DNA of 64,000 nucleotides from a virus (lineage: Duplodnaviria > Caudoviricetes). Position 1 is the first letter of the stretch; every line of letters starts with the position of its first letter. The translations under genes were made by a program, and so were the position numbers. The notes under the pieces are model-generated. The model was not told where the DNA came from and ran no database searches. It saw only the letters and a list, made by a program, of their open reading frames with translations. The stretch covers positions 1 to 64,000 of IMG/VR virus record IMGVR_UViG_3300026522_000028. One strand, given 5' to 3'. Below are positions 478 through 57,036 of the stretch, piece after piece.

Positions 478-514
478 CATGTTTGTGAAAGTTTTTTTAG
501 GGGGGAAAAGAAAT

Positions 515-895
515 ATGTTATATGATCCAAAAAGAAACCGCATTCGTCAGCTACGAGTAGCCAAGGGAATCGACGCACGCACCGATCTTGCCAAGGCAAT
601 CAAGGATGCTTTCGGCGTAGAGATGACATCGATGACGATCGGCCGCATGGAGAACGGCGAAGTGAAGCCGAGGTTCGACCTGATCTACGCGATGGCTAAA
701 TTCTTCGATGTCTCCATCGAATATCTCATGGGCATCTCCGACGATCCGCATGGGGACGGTCGCAGGAGACTCAATGACAACAACAAAGACCAGGACGATA
801 CACCACCAGAAGTCAAGATGGCGATGGAGACGCTGAAGAAGCAGCTCGTGACAGCGATCAAGGCACGCGAAGATCAGCCATCGGAAACGATGTAA
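515..895 (+). CDS. XRE/CI-like HTH repressor
   Basis: RIRQLR...TIGRMENGEVKP...IYAMAKFFDVSIEYLMG is a typical XRE pattern; divergent from the lytic operon. Confidence 0.85.
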   Translation: MLYDPKRNRIRQLRVAKGIDARTDLAKAIKDAFGVEMTSMTIGRMENGEVKPRFDLIYAMAKFFDVSIEYLMGISDDPHGDGRRRLNDNNKDQDDTPPEVKMAMETLKKQLVTAIKAREDQPSETM

Positions 896-1102: not shown

Positions 1103-1633
1103 GCAATTATCCTCCGTAAAAACACACCTAAAAGTTGGAATCTTCGTATGAAACATCATCCACGATGTACTGCGAAGCGGCTATATATTCAAGCAGCTCT
1201 GCCTCGCATACACAGAGAGCTTCGAATATCTGTGTCATACTGTTAATCCACATATTTTCGTTATAATTTATATACCAATCCCCCCCCTATGTAATCGTTA
1301 TCAACAACTCAGAGTATAGGACTTAAAACAAGAAAAATCAAGTGGAAATTTTATAAATGAATTGCTTCTATGCCTCTATGGTATCGTGATAGAATTTGTT
1401 TATTGAATCGTATCATAAGAAATACGCCGTATTCGAAATTCTTCCAATTCAATAGACAATGATTTCTATTGCACTAATGTTACAACAATGTGCTTCAGAT
1501 GTCAAGGATTAAACTCTGCAAAGTTCTGTGAATTAAACATCTGTGAAATAATATCGGTACTAAGTACAATGGATTTTATCATATGTATTCTCCAGCAATA
1601 AACGAAAGCACGGATGCTCTTGCTTTTCGATAC

Positions 1634-1668
1634 AAAAAAGGAACCAACGACGCGCCGCCGCTGGCTCC
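1634..1668 (-). terminator. Intrinsic terminator ending a leftward non-coding transcript
   Basis: GGAGCCAGCGGCG-gcg-CGTCGTTGGTTCC-TTTTTT on the minus strand. Confidence 0.8.
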
Positions 1669-1696
1669 TACGTAGTGCTACTATCCTATTGCTATG

Positions 1697-1717
1697 TTAT
1701 CCACATGTTTTTCCACA
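1697..1717 (+). promoter_or_regulatory. Two tandem DnaA boxes
   Basis: TTATCCACA (1697-1705) and TTTTCCACA (1709-1717), next to an AT-rich tract at about 1250-1600. Confidence 0.6.
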
Positions 1718-2505
1718 GGTGAGTTTCGTCACCAGTCGAATTTCTGTTCACGGTGGAGCGTTGAACTCCTCCGATTTGTTCGATGGTCTACGATGTTAAG
1801 CTCTACTTGTCGGGAGGAAACCTCCCAACACTCTACTACGATAACCGTTATACATCCGTGCTGCCCTTCTTGCGGAGTGCCGTCGTTCGGAACCTGCCTG
1901 CGGCAGAACCCTCGCGCCGTCCCTTCCGCTGTCTGCGACAGAATCGAGAAACGTTATGACACTAGGGAGAGGCGGTGGTTGTTGCTATCGTATCCTCATC
2001 GTAGAGCCTGTGGTTATCGGTAGTTCGTATCGGGATGATTCTTTATAAATTTTCTCTGTATCGTTCGGAGGTAGGACTTGACAATCACATCGAATCCATG
2101 AAATGCTTGAAGGCTTTTGAGCTTTTTGAAGACACGTCTCCCCGAGGCACGACAAAGAAAAGAACTTCGTCGTGACTCAAGGAGAGCGTCGATAAACCAT
2201 GATGCCCGTTAGGATCATCGCCCCCATCGACCACCAGCTACGCATATCCATCGTCATCCGTTGCTTATCTCTCCGCAACGTCGAATGGCCTCCCAGAACC
2301 CGAAGGTTCTTCGAGATACATCACCGCAACCCAGACCGTTTATTCTCATGGCCGTCTTCGCCCCAGAGAGAAACGCCGAAAGCTGGTGGTTGAAAAGCGT
2401 TTGTCGATGGTAGCCGCGTCCATCTATCTCTCATGCCTATTTATTCCCTCGGCACATCGGGGCGTTTTTGATACCCGAGTTCTTCCGCTAAACTCGCACG
2501 AAGCC

Positions 2506-2576
2506 TTGACGTAGCGGCGTTCGTATTGTATAATCTAAGTAATCATTTTATATCGATGAACGCTTGGCTACGTCAA
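2506..2576. promoter_or_regulatory. Overlapping opposed promoter pair built from an inverted repeat
   Basis: Plus: TTGACG(2506)-17-TATAAT(2529). Minus: TTGACG(2576)-18-TATAAA(2552). Predicted start sites both near 2540. Confidence 0.65.
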
Positions 2577-2629
2577 GACTTCGATAGAAACCCTTTGAGA
2601 ACTTTGCTCGTCAAGGTTCTCTTTTTTTT
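2541..2629 (+). ncRNA. Candidate ~90-nt small RNA
   Basis: Consensus promoter followed by terminator GAGAACTTTG-ctcgt-CAAGGTTCTC-T8 (2597-2629); no RBS/ORF. Confidence 0.5.
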
Positions 2630-2665
2630 GCCTGTATTCATTCCCCCGGAGCTGCCGAGGTATCT

Positions 2666-2674
2666 TGTGGATAA
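2666..2674 (-). promoter_or_regulatory. DnaA box
   Basis: TGTGGATAA, which is TTATCCACA on the minus strand. Confidence 0.5.
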
Positions 2675-2718
2675 TCATAGCATATGTAGTTCAATCTTGT
2701 CAACAACTTTTTTGTTAC

Positions 2719-2911
2719 CGCTATAACGGTATAGAGGTATAACGGTATAGCGGTATAACGGCATAGAGGTATAACGGTATAACGGTATGAATGGCGAAAA
2801 CATTGATGTTACCGCTTGTATTTCATCGAATAACGGTGTATTATAGGGGCATAGAGGTATACCGTTATAACGGTATAACGGTATAGAGGTATAACGGTAT
2901 GGAGGTATGAC
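2719..2911 (+). repeat. parS-like centromere: two arrays (about 9 and 8 units) of an 8-bp repeat GGTATA(GA/AC) flanking the parA promoter
   Basis: Tandem GGTATAGA/GGTATAAC units at 2719-2790 and 2848-2911; promoter TTGTAT-17-TATTAT at 2816-2844 lies between them. Confidence 0.8.
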
Positions 2912-3755
2912 TATGATTACCATCGCGATCTGCAATAAAAAAGGCGGCGTCGGCAAGACTACCACAGCATATACGCTGGCGGCAATGCTTAAATTCAGAG
3001 ACTTCAAAGTTCTCGCCATCGATCTCGATGGACAATGCAATCTCACAAAGGTTTCAGGGTTCAATAAAAACTGTCCGACCGCATACTCCGTGCTTACACG
3101 CGAGGTTCCCATCAAGAACGCCATCGTTAAAACGGAGTGGTTCGATTTCGTCAAGGGCAGCAGGTCGTTGTTCACCATCGGGCAGGTGTTGTCCGAAGGG
3201 CCGGGGCGCGTCATGCGTCTTATCAATGCTCTAAAGACTATCGATAAGGATTACGACTTCTGCATCCTCGATACGCCGCCAGCCGTGGATGTTGTCACGA
3301 CTAATGCAATGATGGCTGCGGATTACATCGTGATCCCTGCGGAGGCCAACGAGCTTTCGACGGACGGCATCGTGTCTGTCAGTGATAGCGTCAAGGAAGT
3401 GCGGGAATACTTTAATTCCAATCTGGCAATCGCAGGCATCCTCCTGACGCGCTACCGTGGCAGAACGAACATCGCGCAGGACTACAAGGAAATCTTCAAG
3501 AAGTACGCGAAGACCATCGGCACTACTCTGTTCAAAACGGAAATCCGCGAAACTATTGCGTTCTCGGAAGTCCCGTCGATCCACCAGCCGATCTTCATGT
3601 ATCGCAAGGATTCGACGGGGACGGAGGACTACTCGAAGTTCACTACGGAACTCCTTAAGGTCATCAAGAAAAACGAAGAGAAGCTGGCAGAGACAAAGGC
3701 GCTGGAGGAAGAAAGGAAGACAACGGCGATAACGGAGGACAAGCTCAATGTCTAA
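2907..3755 (+). CDS. parA: Walker-type partition ATPase (type Ib, no N-terminal HTH)
   Basis: KGGVGKTT deviant Walker A, IDLDGQCN, ILDTPP motifs. Confidence 0.95.
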   Translation: MTMITIAICNKKGGVGKTTTAYTLAAMLKFRDFKVLAIDLDGQCNLTKVSGFNKNCPTAYSVLTREVPIKNAIVKTEWFDFVKGSRSLFTIGQVLSEGPGRVMRLINALKTIDKDYDFCILDTPPAVDVVTTNAMMAADYIVIPAEANELSTDGIVSVSDSVKEVREYFNSNLAIAGILLTRYRGRTNIAQDYKEIFKKYAKTIGTTLFKTEIRETIAFSEVPSIHQPIFMYRKDSTGTEDYSKFTTELLKVIKKNEEKLAETKALEEERKTTAITEDKLNV

Positions 3756-5915: not shown

Positions 5916-8900
5916 TCATTTGCGAGCTTGCTCCTGCTCAATGGCATCCACGATGACGCCGCCCTTGTTCCGCATGAATTCGTAGCGATGTCCCGGCTCA
6001 ACGCTGATTCCGCGCTGCCATCCACGGTATCGGTCATGATACTTCTGCTTCTTCCACGCGCTGGAAAAGACGATGCCGCTGATGTCTCCGTAGTCCGTGG
6101 CGAACGTGATGCGTGCCATCAGCCCACCGTTCTTGTCGGTGAACTCGTGGATGTCCTTCGGCGTGCCGATCAGCACCTTTGGCAGCTCGTGAAACGAGAA
6201 CGAAAGCACCTCCATCTCACCGGCGATAGCATCGTAGCGCTTCTCGGCGTTCTCTACGAACATCACCTCGCCGAGCTTCTGATACCACTTCAGGCGCATG
6301 TCCTTTGCGTGGCGATGCTTCTTTTCATCTGTGGTGCTCCACGCCTGCTCTTCGTAGTATTTGATGCGCTCTTTGCAATGCGCCTTGCGTTCCATGACTT
6401 CCTTCGTAGACTGGAGGTTCGCGATCATCCAGCCACGGGACTTGCCTGTGTAGTCCATCGCACCAGCCTTGATGAGATTTTCGACCACACGCTTGTTGTA
6501 CGATGACACCACAGTATCCCAGTCAAGCGATGGGAGCTGCGGAATCTCGCCGACGCCTTTGATGTACGTCAGTCCAACACGGAGTGCATCGCCCTCCACC
6601 GTCCACGTCAGGTTCCCGACCTTGAGGCTCGGCGGGAGAATCCTGATTTTCATACGGCGGCACTCCTCGATGTACGGCAGGAGCTTCTTCTGGTCGCTCC
6701 TCGAATTGAGCAGCGCACACATGTACTGCACAGGGTAATGAGCTTTGAGATACGCCGTCTTGTACGAGAGCTTCGCGTAGGAAACCGCGTGGCTGCGATT
6801 GAAGCAGTACCTTCCAGCCGCTTCGATCTGCTTTGCTACCTCCGCTGCTACCTCGTGGGAGTACCCGTTCTTCTCGCAGCCAGCAACGAACTCTGCGACG
6901 GCCTCTTTGATTTTCGTAAGCTCCTTGCGACCGATAACCTTGCGGAGTGCATCGGCCTGCCCAAGGTTATATCCAGCCATCTTCATTGCGATTTTCATAA
7001 TCATTTCCTGATAAACCAAGACGCCATAGGTGCTACCAGCGATTTCTTCCATTGCCTCACATGGATACGTGACTTCGATTTTCCCGTTCTTCGCATCGAT
7101 ATACTGCTGGAGCATGCCAGAATCCAGCGGGCCCGGGCGATAGAGCGCAACGAGAACTGCGAGGTCATCGAAGGAATTGACGTGGAGTTCCCGCGCAATC
7201 TTCTGCATGCCCGGCGATTCCATCTGGAATACGCCCGTCGTGTTGCCATCGGCATACATCTGATAAGTCTTTGCGTCATCCATCGGGATACTTTCGAGGG
7301 ACAGCGGCACGTCAATCATCTTCAGGCAATCGTCGATGATGTCCAGCGTGCGGAGGCCGAGGATGTCCAGCTTCAGCAGCCCCATCGCCTCCAGCGTGTG
7401 ATACTCAAAGGCTGCGACGCGGATGTACTCGCGCTTGCCCGTCGATGTATTCGTCGATGTGCAGCCCTCGATGGGACAATACTTTTCGACGGCATCAGGG
7501 GTAACAAGGATCGCCGACGCATGGACACCTTCTTTGTCGAGACGCCCGGCGAAATGCTTGGACACATCGAGGAGGCGTTCACGTTCCTCCTTCGTAAAGT
7601 CCGAGGGGACTGTGAGGATTTCATCGAGAGATTCTTTGAGCTGCCGTGTAACCGCGAGAACTCGCTCATGTGTCCACCGCAATCCCGTGTCCAGCTTATT
7701 ACTCTTGCGACGTTTTACCTCGGCTTGTGCGGCATCTGAGAGGGATAAAAATTCCTCTTTCTCCAGCGCTTGCTCGGCACGGAGAACCGCCTGCTTACCC
7801 ACGTCGGGCTTGTCGGGATTCTTGGTATAGCCGTAGGTCGTGACCTTGTAGACCGTACCGTAGTGCTCTCTGATATAGTCGATGATGCGGCTGCGCTGAT
7901 TCGTCGATACATCGGTGTCGATGTCCGGCATGGTGACGCGATACGGATTGCAGAAGCGGAAGAACTCTGTGCCGAACTTGATGGAGTCTACCTTGTGAAA
8001 TCCCATGAGATACCCGACGAGGCAACCAGCAGCAGACCCGCGCCCCTCGCCGACTGGGATGTTGTTCTTCACGCACCAGTTTACCAAGTCCCAGATGATG
8101 AGCAAGTAGTTCAAGTAATTCGTCGCTTCAAGGTCTTTCATCTCTGCCTCGAAGCGTTCTGCGTATTCGGCGTAATGCCCGTGCGGGACTTTGGCTTTCC
8201 AGTTCTTCCGGCAGATTTCGCGGACAACTTCGCCAGCATCGCGGTCGGTGTAGACAGGGTAATGCATACCGCCGAACTCAATCTCCACATTGCACATCTC
8301 AGCGATCCGTGCCGTGCTCTCGATGCATTCGTCTTTGACATCATCTGGAATCCACGGCGTTTTCCGCAGCTCGTCCTCGCTCCATTGGTAGTTCTCGTTG
8401 TCGTGGTATCCGTTGCCGTGAATCTGCAACCACAGGTAATGATAGGGTTCGTCTTCGGGACGAGCATAGTGGGCATCGGTCGTAACCACGAGGGGAACAT
8501 TGTACTTCCGCGCAAGGCCAATGACCTTCGCATTGTACTCCTGCTGCTTGTCGATGTTGAGCGGCTGGATTTCTGCGAAGAATCTGTCCCCGAAGATGTC
8601 ATGGAATTTCTCGAACCATTCTTCGCCGTCTGGCGTATTCACGATGGACGCCATGCACGCCGACAAACAGATGATGCCAGCGCTATGCATCCGCAGGTCA
8701 TCCACGTCGATGCGCGGTTTGTAAAACATGTGGGCTTCTTTGTAGGCAATCGTGTCGAGCTCTTTGAGATTCCGATAGCCCACATCGTTCATTGCAAGGA
8801 GCACGAGGTGGTGCGTCATCGAACGGTCGCGGACTGTGATGTCTGGGCAGAAGTAGAACTCGCAGCCGATGATCGGCTTAATGCCTTGTGCTTTGCATTC

Positions 8901-9056
8901 CTTGTAGAACTCTACGACGCCACGCATCGTCCCGTGGTCTGTAATGGAAAGCGCGGTGGCTCCCAGTTCTTTCGCCCGCGATACCATCTCTGGGATCGTC
9001 TGGTATCCATCGAGCAAGCTGAAATGACTGTGGTTATGCAGCGATACGTATTTCAT
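5916..9056 (-). CDS. dnaE: DNA polymerase III alpha subunit (family C, PHP domain)
   Basis: HNHSHFSLLDG, TDHG, PDIDTD, KLDILGLRTL, FNRSHAVSYA motifs. Confidence 0.95.
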   Translation of the reverse strand: MKYVSLHNHSHFSLLDGYQTIPEMVSRAKELGATALSITDHGTMRGVVEFYKECKAQGIKPIIGCEFYFCPDITVRDRSMTHHLVLLAMNDVGYRNLKELDTIAYKEAHMFYKPRIDVDDLRMHSAGIICLSACMASIVNTPDGEEWFEKFHDIFGDRFFAEIQPLNIDKQQEYNAKVIGLARKYNVPLVVTTDAHYARPEDEPYHYLWLQIHGNGYHDNENYQWSEDELRKTPWIPDDVKDECIESTARIAEMCNVEIEFGGMHYPVYTDRDAGEVVREICRKNWKAKVPHGHYAEYAERFEAEMKDLEATNYLNYLLIIWDLVNWCVKNNIPVGEGRGSAAGCLVGYLMGFHKVDSIKFGTEFFRFCNPYRVTMPDIDTDVSTNQRSRIIDYIREHYGTVYKVTTYGYTKNPDKPDVGKQAVLRAEQALEKEEFLSLSDAAQAEVKRRKSNKLDTGLRWTHERVLAVTRQLKESLDEILTVPSDFTKEERERLLDVSKHFAGRLDKEGVHASAILVTPDAVEKYCPIEGCTSTNTSTGKREYIRVAAFEYHTLEAMGLLKLDILGLRTLDIIDDCLKMIDVPLSLESIPMDDAKTYQMYADGNTTGVFQMESPGMQKIARELHVNSFDDLAVLVALYRPGPLDSGMLQQYIDAKNGKIEVTYPCEAMEEIAGSTYGVLVYQEMIMKIAMKMAGYNLGQADALRKVIGRKELTKIKEAVAEFVAGCEKNGYSHEVAAEVAKQIEAAGRYCFNRSHAVSYAKLSYKTAYLKAHYPVQYMCALLNSRSDQKKLLPYIEECRRMKIRILPPSLKVGNLTWTVEGDALRVGLTYIKGVGEIPQLPSLDWDTVVSSYNKRVVENLIKAGAMDYTGKSRGWMIANLQSTKEVMERKAHCKERIKYYEEQAWSTTDEKKHRHAKDMRLKWYQKLGEVMFVENAEKRYDAIAGEMEVLSFSFHELPKVLIGTPKDIHEFTDKNGGLMARITFATDYGDISGIVFSSAWKKQKYHDRYRGWQRGISVEPGHRYEFMRNKGGVIVDAIEQEQARK

Positions 9057-9589: not shown

Positions 9590-10393
9590 TCAAAGATACT
9601 TTGCGATGAAATAGCTCTGGCCTTTCGGCGTGATTTCCGTTGTTTTTGTGATTGACCTGAATCCAGTCGCGGGATTCGTCCACGTCGTTTCCTTGATATG
9701 GAACAGTCCTGATTCCATAGCTTTCTGTGTCGGGATGTTCCATTCGTTCTTCGACTTCTGCAAGAGGTTATCATCGCGGAGTTTTTCAAAGAGCCTCGTG
9801 CGCCCAACATGAGCGCCGCTCTGACGGAGAATCTTTGCCATGTCTCCGATGCTGATGTTCTCCTCTGCCGATGTAATGGCTTTGCCGAGCTCCGTCATCG
9901 GCTTCTCGCGCTCGATCCTTGCTTCGAGGTCTTTGGATTTCTCCTGTTCTGCTTTGAGCGCTTGGAGAAGACCGATGGCAAAGTCGGGGTCACTAATGAC
10001 TCTCGCCATCGTCTCCGTTGTCATGTACGCGCCGTGCTTACGAATGCTTGGGAGAACATCGTTCGTTACCCAATGCTTGAACTTCTTCGCCGCTGGCAGT
10101 TTTGAACCGAAGACCAATGCATACACGCCTGATTCGTTGATGAACCAGTTGTCCTGCCGACCGAAGGTTTCCTGCATTTCCTTTAGCGAGCTAAAGAGTT
10201 TTCCCATTTCGTTACCCCTGCTTCCACGCAGGAACTTGTCTTCCTCATCAACGTGGTCGAGGATAGCTTTGTTCGTGTTGCGGTATCCAAGGATTTCTGC
10301 AACGTCTTTGCCAACGAACCACGGGCCATCTTCGAGACGTACCGTGCGAACCGAGCCGAACTCTTCATTGTTGAAAATCTGGACTTCATTCAT
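9590..10393 (-). CDS. Phage antirepressor (Bro-N plus KilAC/ANT C-terminal domain)
   Basis: MNEVQIFNNEEFGSVRTV...PWFVGKDVAEILGY; C-terminal ISIGDMAK...GRTRLF...TPKGQ.YF. Confidence 0.9.
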   Translation of the reverse strand: MNEVQIFNNEEFGSVRTVRLEDGPWFVGKDVAEILGYRNTNKAILDHVDEEDKFLRGSRGNEMGKLFSSLKEMQETFGRQDNWFINESGVYALVFGSKLPAAKKFKHWVTNDVLPSIRKHGAYMTTETMARVISDPDFAIGLLQALKAEQEKSKDLEARIEREKPMTELGKAITSAEENISIGDMAKILRQSGAHVGRTRLFEKLRDDNLLQKSKNEWNIPTQKAMESGLFHIKETTWTNPATGFRSITKTTEITPKGQSYFIAKYL

Positions 10394-50039: not shown

Positions 50040-50119
50040 TTTACGTATTATTGTAGGTGTACATGGAGGAAATGGAAATGCATTGGCGATAGTAGAGAAT
50101 ACGTAGTCGAATAGCCGAA

Positions 50120-50169
50120 ACGACCGTTGGATGCATACAACGGTTGTCTGTCGGGAATGACCCCCCGGC
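50120..50169 (+). repeat. Early two-hairpin element, divergent copy
   Basis: ACGACCGTTG/CAACGGTTGT stem followed by GTCGGG-aatgac..-CCCGGC; loop matches copy 1. Confidence 0.45.
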
Positions 50170-50214
50170 ACCGATGAGGCAGGTCAGCCTAGGGAAAAGA
50201 CAGGAGGAATTACC

Positions 50215-56241: not shown

Positions 56242-57036
56242 CAATGGACTACAGCGAATTTCTGGCAGAGGTGAAGGTTCTGCGCTCCAAGGCAACCTAC
56301 GAGGGATACAAGGCAGCGCTGAAGCACTTCCCGAATCCGACGAAGGAAAACATCATGAAGTACATCGAGAATCCGAAGTTCTCATCGAGCACAAAAAAAA
56401 GAACGCCTCCGTATTCTCGGAACTGCCCTCAGATGGTACAATAAGATGGACAGAGGAATCGAGCGAATCATCAAGGGATACCGTGAGAACAAGACGGTCG
56501 AGCCCTGCCCTACCAATGAGCAGGTGGAGCTGGCATGGAACCAGCTCGGGAACAACAGAGACAGAGCGATGTTCGCGCTGATGGCCTACAATGGTTTGCG
56601 TATCGGCGAAGTTCATGCATTGGATAGAGCCGACGTAGACATTGAGCATAACATTTTGACCGTTCGCGGAACCAAAGGTAAGCACGATGCAATCATCCCG
56701 CTCATCCATCCGAGAGTCCAGAAATACCTGTATGCATGGATGACCGAGCGCCACGATAACTACAAGGCATTGTTCATCGGGCCGAACGGTCGGCTGTCCT
56801 ATGGATTTCTCAAGGTGAAATTCCATGAGTTGTTCCGCGATCTCGGCATGGAGTTCCATGCACATTCCCTCCGGCGCTACTATGCCAATTCCATGTACAA
56901 CGCAGGAGTTCCGTTGCAGGACATGTCAGTTGCCATGCGTCACGCCAATGTTTCCACGACGATGCGCTACCTGAACATTGGGCAGCAGAACGTTGTGGCT
57001 GCGCTCCAGCGCACATTCGCTGGAGCTACGGCGTAA
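56238..57036 (+). pseudogene. XerC-like tyrosine recombinase interrupted by a frameshift at an A8 tract
   Basis: Removing one A at 56393-56400 joins ORFs 56238-56444 and 56446-57036 (STKK-ERLRILGTALRWYNKMDRG); GLRIGE, HSLRR, MRH and TMRY catalytic motifs intact. Confidence 0.85.

Follow-up and report, generated by a model that had tools for sequence, protein, structure and literature searches.

Beside the partition gene parA of a 76-kb rumen-type phage lies what is very probably a true gene for a structured RNA, accompanied by an antisense RNA. The phage is represented by a 76,180-bp IMG/VR virus record (IMGVR_UViG_3300026522_000028; completeness rating 100%), whose first 64 kb form the window analyzed here; RNA coordinates are given on the window minus strand. 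The fold of the long RNA is preserved by paired substitutions across divergent relatives, and conserved promoters and terminators bound both predicted RNAs. From the position of the locus, its architecture, its DnaA boxes and the precedent of other replicons, we lean, with some caution, towards the reading that the RNA pair is the origin and copy-control module of a plasmid prophage.

Covariation supports a folded minus-strand RNA

Homologous gaps were reached through relatives of ParA on metagenomic contigs that share the synteny and the gene-free gap of the window. ParA identity to the window was 98% for L007, 78% for L003, L004 and L005, 64% for L008, 56% for L009, and 54% for both L015 and L010. 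Two further metagenome contigs, L013 and L014, were gained by a scan with the first of two sequence patterns. The seventh and most divergent lineage, L025, was found with the covariance model R1, which comprises 280 positions and was built on 2195–2473 only, with L025 left out of the building; R1 scored L025 at 48.9 bits (E = 1e-15) and recovers nine homologues. Pairwise identity of the gaps was 51–93% between non-identical copies of the first six lineages (L025 excluded).

Folded singly, the sequence had an unremarkable energy (z = −1.7 for the minus strand and −1.0 for the plus strand), so the case for an RNA rests on comparative data. An RNAalifold consensus of eight sequences over the 5' 680 nt contained 114 predicted pairs, with standard pairs in 91.3% of cells, compared with 36–45% when the partners were slid by 1–3 columns. 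Changes on both sides were found in 39 of the 114 pairs, against 4–10 after sliding and 19.4 ± 3.0 after shuffling, and none of 500 shuffles reached 39. When the structure was taken from three close sequences, 62–78% of its pairs formed in four held-out lineages, versus 34–51% in slid controls. With L025 included, the core was 94.3% paired (29–51% slid), and 19 of 48 pairs were double-changed (2–7 slid). In this lineage the long-range helix of the core is rewritten on both strands, CCUCUAUC / GAUAGAGG replacing CCACCAGC / GCUGGUGG, and is fully compensated. The predicted pairs included 108 G·U cells versus 20 A·C cells, indicating that the folded strand is the window minus strand. Covariation across the homologous intergenic regions, which an earlier sequence-only reading of this DNA had singled out as a way to examine its proposed RNA, is thus strong on that strand.

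Individual helices carry this signal (Table 1). The sequence of helix 1, the 5' hairpin, is fully replaced in L009, L015 and L010, and the hairpin still forms. Five of the six pairs of helix 4 are double-changed, as are two of the five pairs of helix 2, which joins 2584–2580 to 2003–1999 and closes the whole 5' domain. The long-range helix within the core has 11 pairs, of which 5 are invariant and 6 double-changed, and 94.9% of its cells are paired. The sequence-only reading had recognized ten of these pairs (2381–2390 with 2230–2239), which are perfect in the window and are borne out by covariation. Its proposed extension of the helix by CCAUCG/CGAUGG finds no support: CCAUC (2410–2406) instead pairs locally with GAUGG (2424–2420) in a hairpin that itself covaries. 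The hairpins it had listed, namely AGAACC-UUCG-GGUUCU at 2295–2310 and others near 1811–1825, 1884–1896 and 2477–2497, are all present, and the last covaries (2 of 8 pairs double-changed). Consensus folding over all lineages gave no shared structure for the 3' third (1997–1634), and the variable 3' region could not be aligned to L008, L009 or L010.

Boundaries and noncoding nature of the long RNA

The −35 and TGnTAT elements of the promoter P1 are kept in all eight aligned homologues and in L025, with a predicted start near 2667. Since the 5' hairpin (2659–2645) and the 5' strands of helices 2–4 (2584–2558) covary, the RNA must start upstream of them. The sequence-only reading had placed the promoter further in, at TTGACG (2576–2571)–18–TATAAA (2552–2547). 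These hexamers are present, but their role as the promoter of the long RNA is not supported, because their spacing is not conserved: an 11-nt insert separates them in L003–L005, and other spacings occur in L009 and L010. The site also fails the promoter-scan rule, the sixth base of its −10 hexamer being A and not T, and it forms half of an inverted repeat (2499–2583) whose other half is a conserved plus-strand promoter. At the far end, the clean intrinsic terminator reported at 1634–1668 proved to be a strong minus-strand terminator (1669–1639, T6 to 1634). It shows compensatory changes in L007, L003 and L014, and a different terminator is used in L009/L015. The long RNA probably spans ~2667 to 1634, judging by these signals. 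The earlier description of an ORF-free structured transcript holds, and its length is revised from ~900 nt to ~1,030 nt, counted from the conserved promoter at 2703–2674. That either RNA is made we infer from the conserved promoters and terminators.

The G+C content of 1650–2500 is gene-like (~50%, versus 30–32% in 1200–1630), as a decayed or recoded protein gene would have it, but such an origin is hardly credible on the other data. The longest minus-strand ORF inside the region as first bounded has 56 codons, in agreement with the earlier statement that none reaches 60. Stops of all three kinds, 9–18 per frame, occur in all six frames, so recoding opens no frame. Substitutions are evenly spread over codon positions, most indels are not multiples of three, and no ORF is common to the homologues in place or strand; codon-like conservation is absent. 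In addition, conservation exceeds that of the neighboring genes: the core (1997–2500) is 93% identical to L003, compared with 78% for parA and 76% for the SSB gene, and it is the most alignable neighborhood DNA in L009 and L010. The conserved block covers 1694–2781, and the AT-rich flank (1160–1630) is not conserved. A 70-aa gene call on the plus strand opposite the RNA-core homologue of L025 (L025:1820–2032) is probably spurious.

Searches with Rfam 15 found nothing in the RNA region of the window at gathering score or at E ≤ 10, and nothing in the RNA region of five homologous loci at E ≤ 1; the models for ROOL, GOLLD, OLE, HEARO, raiA and ARRPOF gave no match at the locus. Pattern scans of 185,579 species-representative genomes returned 0 matches to the RNA family. 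In IMG/VR the first pattern had 0 matches, and the second, which fits all eight homologues, found one contig, identical to L009 over the locus. Neither blastn at its distant setting against phage and plasmid collections (no match to the locus) nor a ParA-based search for related loci in IMG/VR (none) added members, and tblastn of ParA against phages gave best matches of ≤37% identity, with no cultured relative. As far as these sequence collections go, the RNA family appears rare and has so far been seen only in uncultured phages.

A predicted antisense RNA with its own history

Opposite the 5' part of the long RNA, the hexamers and 17-nt spacing of a plus-strand promoter are kept in all eight homologues, and L025 has an equivalent site. 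The terminator of the predicted small RNA is kept in all lineages, with its stem wholly replaced yet compensated in L007, L008 and L009. A two-hairpin fold is found for the small RNA of every lineage (z from −1.0 in L003 to −3.8, and ≤ −2.2 in five of six); this shape comes from single-sequence folds, and a MAFFT-based consensus recovered the terminator only partly. The small RNA is fully complementary to ~nt 38–126 of the long RNA, and its pairing would open helices 3–4 and helix 2, because the target covers their 5' strands.

The core and the antisense/target segment have different histories. Between the window and L007, the core is 98% identical and the small-RNA body 66%. The order is reversed between the window and L014 (core 64%, small-RNA body 98%), and L009 and L015 share 99% of the core and 80% of the small-RNA body. 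The segment has been exchanged independently and, on this sequence pattern, behaves as a swapped specificity determinant, for incompatibility or immunity.

The second of these functions could place the locus among RNA-based immunity or lysis–lysogeny switches such as P1/P7 c4 RNA or P4 CI RNA. The small RNA would then silence or prematurely terminate a long RNA acting in trans or on read-through into downstream genes, and would set heteroimmunity, not copy number. An HTH repressor-like gene (479–895) adjoins the locus, the antisense/target segment is its fastest-evolving and most exchanged part, and small minus-strand genes always follow the RNA. We nevertheless regard a switch of this kind as unlikely, as it needs no ~500-nt structured core that is better conserved than the neighboring genes, and it leaves the DnaA boxes and AT-rich DNA unexplained. 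Moreover, the strong terminator and the gene's own promoter (1505–1477) part the downstream gene from the RNA, and the anti-repressor gene lies ~7 kb off (9590–10393).

Origin-like DNA at the locus

The 64-kb window contains just two perfect DnaA boxes, both of them at this locus, and 5 of its 10 matches with at most one mismatch fall within 1244–2674. The box at P1 is kept in L007, L014, L008 and L025, a box at P1 or shortly beyond it being present in four of the seven lineages, and one is also present in a non-homologous module, L012, described below. DnaA boxes at the 3' end were found in five of the six first-collected lineages (L025 lay outside the scan), with equivalents in L003/L004, L014, L008 and L009/L015; L009 has at least five around the terminator. 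Downstream of the RNA, a 100-nt stretch of 25–32% G+C occurs in six of the seven homologues tested, the value for L010 being only 38%.

Along with the iterons nearby, these features would also suit an element acting at the DNA level, an origin or protein-binding region whose pairings are single-stranded DNA (ssDNA) folds or palindromic protein sites and whose transcription is incidental. The inverted repeat at 2499–2583 could be a protein site, and for ARRPOF-like plasmid motifs the available part of the original report raises the possibility that they function as ssDNA (Weinberg et al. 2017, PMC5737381). However, the excess of G·U over A·C cells speaks for RNA, G·T being much weaker in DNA folds; the promoters and terminators, which mark the exact limits of both RNAs, have been preserved through compensatory changes; and DNA that is unwound only transiently would hardly form helices spanning ~150 to 580 nt. 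We thus judge a purely DNA-level element to be quite improbable.

Table 1 Features of the RNA locus and of the genes discussed, by position in the 64-kb window
Feature	Position	Strand	Details
T7-type SSB gene	2–334	minus	
HTH repressor-like gene	479–895		
Small ORF	938–1159	minus	
Small helix-loop-helix protein, ~53 aa	938–1099	minus	Conserved in alignments
Gene-free gap	1160–2906		
AT-rich stretch	1200–1633		30–32% G+C versus 50% around; one-mismatch DnaA boxes at 1244 and 1298
Conserved promoter of the small downstream gene	1505–1477	minus	
Long non-coding RNA unit (predicted), ~1,030 nt	2667–1634	minus	From P1 start to terminator
Intrinsic terminator of the long RNA	1669–1634	minus	14-bp stem (1669–1639) with 8 G-C pairs; T6 tail to 1634
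DnaA box pair	1697–1717	plus	Perfect TTATCCACA (1697–1705) and TTTTCCACA; just before the terminator
Variable 3' region	1720–1996	minus	70–88% conserved within closer lineages
Conserved structured core	2125–2499	minus	Multi-branch domain, including highly conserved unpaired stretches
Domain closed by the long-range helix	2229–2391	minus	Helix 2381–2391 / 2229–2239
Antisense promoter	2506–2534	plus	TTGACG, 17-nt spacer, TATAAT; score 11/12
Antisense target region	2507–2584	minus	Imperfect inverted repeat forming a long hairpin (helices 3–4), plus the 5' strand of helix 2
Predicted antisense small RNA, ~90 nt	2541–2629	plus	5' tail, hairpin, terminator hairpin (2597–2621), U-run (T8)
5' hairpin, helix 1	2645–2659	minus	3 of 4 pairs change on both sides
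Perfect DnaA box TTATCCACA	2666–2674	minus	Abuts the −10 hexamer of P1
Promoter P1	2703–2674	minus	TTGACA, 18-nt spacer, TGcTATGAT; score 11/12 plus TG extension
Iteron or parS-like repeats	2719–2911		Precede parA
parA	2907–3755	plus	Divergent from the long RNA
dnaE	5916–9056	minus	
Anti-repressor gene	9590–10393		
Tyrosine recombinase, 196 aa	56446–57036	plus	Catalytic domain only; PF00589, 88 bits

Other modules beside parA

In two phage-plasmid-like contigs, L012 (62 kb) and L022 (79 kb), whose ParA proteins are 56–57% identical to that of the window, the same slot beside parA holds a different conserved noncoding block of ~700 nt (L012:3995–4830 and L022:3948–4629). The two blocks are 69% identical to each other. 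Model R1 found only noise in the gaps of L012, L022, L023 and L024, and the L012/L022 module is therefore treated as non-homologous. L012 nonetheless shows the same layout: a TG-extended minus-strand promoter whose start carries a DnaA box, and a plus-strand promoter (12/12) and plus-strand terminator bounding a predicted ~75-nt antisense RNA. From these sequence features, the block probably represents a second family of such modules, and, as the layout recurs without homology, the slot seems to be filled by interchangeable long-RNA/antisense-RNA modules. The gap pieces L023:254–522 and L024:496–784 (gap-piece coordinates; adding 1260 gives the locus position in L024) resemble only each other, with 63% identity over 295 nt, and the gaps upstream of parA in these two contigs may represent a third module type.

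This replacement also bears on whether the long RNA could be a trans-acting ornate RNA unrelated to replication, such as a scaffold, a ribozyme or an anti-defense RNA (compare ROOL, GOLLD and OLE), with the antisense RNA tuning its level. Such RNAs are known in phages, and they typically have the features seen here: large size, a multi-branch fold, highly conserved unpaired stretches, and a promoter and terminator of their own. On the other hand, it matches none of the Rfam models for ROOL, GOLLD, OLE, HEARO and raiA and has no tRNAs alongside. Its fixed position on the parA side, its replacement by a module of the same architecture and its DnaA boxes point instead to a cis-linked maintenance role, and an ornate RNA of this sort seems to us a rather doubtful alternative.

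Gene neighborhood and replication genes

The gene order SSB, HTH repressor, small ORF, gap and parA is constant in the window and its relatives, and a small ParB-like candidate gene lies beyond parA. Elsewhere, the genome encodes NrdD, RusA, a fused primase-helicase, an anti-repressor and a short tyrosine recombinase. Family searches found no Rep_3 protein and no resolvase among the phage proteins; a RepA_N search likewise gave no match in the phage, but gave none either in any of 14 control genomes, so that its outcome carries no information on absence.

A helix-loop-helix protein of ~50 aa is always encoded downstream of the RNA, sometimes in duplicate (L003:4014–4178; L009:3383–3577 and 2837–3013; L010:941–1075 and 419–565). 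Its structure model shows two helices in a confident helical hairpin (pLDDT 89). No Pfam, PHROG or PDB match was found for this protein, and a Foldseek search against the PDB gave nothing at E ≤ 0.001. A role as a Rop-like helper is unsupported, since Rop was not among the listed Foldseek matches in the PDB. The position of the gene (938–1159), on the same strand as the RNA and with a terminator in between, would allow the RNA to be a long structured leader with attenuation at the 1669–1639 terminator. Such an arrangement is very improbable, however: the small gene is served by a conserved promoter of its own, the RNA and the gene lie ~470 nt apart across AT-rich DNA that is not conserved, and a leader of 1 kb would be without precedent for a gene of ~53 to 73 codons.

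Several further features of the genome were recorded. The last 60 nt of the record (76121–76180) repeat 83–142 of the window with a single 1-nt difference, which points to a circular or terminally redundant genome; IMG/VR classes it as linear. The anaerobic ribonucleotide reductase NrdD, with an ATP-cone domain, is encoded on the minus strand at genome positions 64020–66071 (L020:521–2572), and its presence is in keeping with a host that is a strict anaerobe, for instance from the rumen or gut. A C5 cytosine methyltransferase is divided between two overlapping minus-strand ORFs at genome positions 69209–69613 and 69606–70520 (L020:5710–6114 and 6107–7021), which hold the N-terminal and C-terminal parts of PF00145, respectively, and may reflect a frameshift or a programmed split. 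A type II hammerhead ribozyme lies on the plus strand at 50113–50188 (Rfam score 40.0 bits; gathering threshold 37).

Proposed role in plasmid-state replication

A role as a replication primer or control RNA is made more likely by the conserved antisense RNA, by the 3' DnaA boxes and AT-rich DNA, and by a layout beside parA like that in the available account of mycobacteriophage origins (Wetzel et al., mBio 2020, PMC7157519). We propose a plausible mechanism on this basis. A sigma-70-type host promoter (2703–2674) would drive an untranslated RNA of ~1,030 nt away from parA. The RNA would fold into its multi-helix core (~2500–2125), continue through the variable 3' part and the DnaA box pair, and stop beside the AT-rich DNA. 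There it could start plasmid-state replication without a phage Rep protein, whether by serving as primer, by forming an R-loop or by activating the stretch of DnaA boxes and AT-rich DNA. A constitutive-looking plus-strand promoter would make the ~90-nt antisense RNA, which would pair with nt 38–126 (the 5' strands of helices 2–4) and might, by analogy with the action of RNA I on RNA II in ColE1, refold or silence the long RNA and so determine copy number and incompatibility.

Several observations weigh against this origin and copy-control reading. The phage has its own DnaE, primase-helicase and SSB, and an unrecognized initiator may yet be present among its many unannotated proteins. The 196-aa tyrosine recombinase leaves integration possible; as a separate observation, this enzyme (56446–57036) could resolve plasmid dimers rather than integrate the phage. 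The DnaA box at P1 is lost in three lineages (L003–L005, L009/L015 and L010), and in the closest relative, L007, a deletion has taken out the 3' box pair. With its strong terminator at 1669–1639, the long RNA looks more like one that is released than one that persists as a primer hybrid, and fast evolution of the antisense/target segment is equally expected of an immunity system. The dataset is small, with nine sequences from seven lineages in total, and the covarying pairs were counted on the same alignments that yielded the structure, except in the held-out test and in L025. Selenomonas as the host of the related phages is only suggested, through the source name of one related ParA.

To our knowledge, few large bacterial RNAs have a complex fold that is conserved, and the majority of those have proved to be ribozymes or cores of important ribonucleoproteins. 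We also know of little on the replication of plasmid prophages beyond the P1 and N15 models. For the sole experimental case of an RNA-based prophage origin, that of the mycobacteriophages, the available text describes neither the RNA structure nor a control element (PMC7157519). A well-bounded two-RNA system with clear covariation, a candidate antisense RNA for copy control and natural swaps of the specificity segment makes Rep-less, RNA-initiated phage-plasmid replication directly testable. The locus could also supply replicons for poorly tractable rumen anaerobes, and the occurrence of a non-homologous module of the same architecture in the same slot suggests a general design. As a more speculative proposal, which we put forward only tentatively, the family may be the founding member of a class of large folded 'origin RNAs' that replace the Rep initiator in phage-plasmids of anaerobic Firmicutes, with the core recruiting or positioning DnaA, the replisome or the phage primase-helicase, and the antisense cassette defining incompatibility groups. 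If so, RNAs of the L012/L022 type would fill the same slot, and RNA-initiated replication would be general across phyla and not a peculiarity of ColE1.

Comparison with known systems

In ColE1, the 5' part of the long untranslated RNA II is covered by the antisense RNA I, which is ~90–110 nt long, has its own promoter and terminator, and acts on RNA II to control copy number. RNA II is transcribed towards the origin, a DnaA box lies near the origin end, the antisense is a separately evolving specificity determinant, and there is no plasmid initiator protein. The locus described here is reminiscent of this arrangement in its predicted ~90-nt antisense RNA, which has its own promoter and terminator and opposes the 5' part of a long untranslated RNA. 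The long RNA also runs towards the presumed origin, with a DnaA box near the origin end; the antisense segment behaves as a specificity determinant that evolves on its own; and no initiator protein was recognized. In contrast to ColE1, there is no Rfam sequence or structure match to RNA I (RNAI, RF00106) or RNA II; the RNA is about twice as long, with a strong intrinsic terminator at its end; the host is not enterobacterial; and the downstream small helical protein has no detectable likeness to Rop.

ROOL and GOLLD are large multi-helix RNAs associated with phages, and the RNA described here resembles them as a large multi-helix phage RNA with a discrete gene. It differs in having no Rfam match, in not lying beside tRNA genes, and in being tied to the par locus, where a non-homologous module can replace it.

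The ARRPOF motif lies in a 1-kb gene-free replication region of the Fusobacterium plasmid pKH9 that is sufficient without rep, and motifs of this type average 223–349 nt, according to the available part of the report (PMC5737381). Shared with pKH9 is a gene-free region of ~1 kb that holds a structured RNA or ssDNA motif. Unlike ARRPOF, the present RNA has no Rfam match at E ≤ 10, and it has a predicted antisense partner, a component not described for ARRPOF in that part of the report.

The closest precedent in layout is provided by mycobacteriophages that carry parABS, 95% of which are without repA in the available account (PMC7157519). As reported there, lysogens express an ORF-free RNA directly upstream of parA and in the reverse direction, deletion of this region destabilizes the lysogens, and ~600 bp are enough for autonomous replication; such RNA-based ('non-RepA') origins belong to the cluster-A plasmid prophages RedRock, Alma, LadyBird, Gladiator and Et2Brutus. 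The present locus is similar in that an ORF-free RNA beside parA is transcribed away from it, repA was not recognized, and a temperate phage carries partition genes. The origin regions of the mycobacteriophages, as far as that account goes, also diverge quickly among related phages. The differences are nonetheless considerable. The phages belong to hosts of different phyla, and model R1 found only noise (≤8.4 bits with filters off) in the origin regions of RedRock (L018) and Alma (L019). The mycobacteriophage regions measure ~400–600 bp, with no structure described in the available text, compared with ~1,030 nt and a covarying core here; a discrete antisense RNA and DnaA boxes, both predicted here, are likewise not described for those origins in that text (PMC7157519). 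Their origin function is experimental, whereas the replication role proposed here is deduced from sequence and layout. The kind of system is thus already known, and the earlier description of the RNA as undescribed applies to the family, which has no Rfam match, and not to the system. What is new is the RNA family, together with the size and fold of the RNA, the explicit antisense cassette and the host group.

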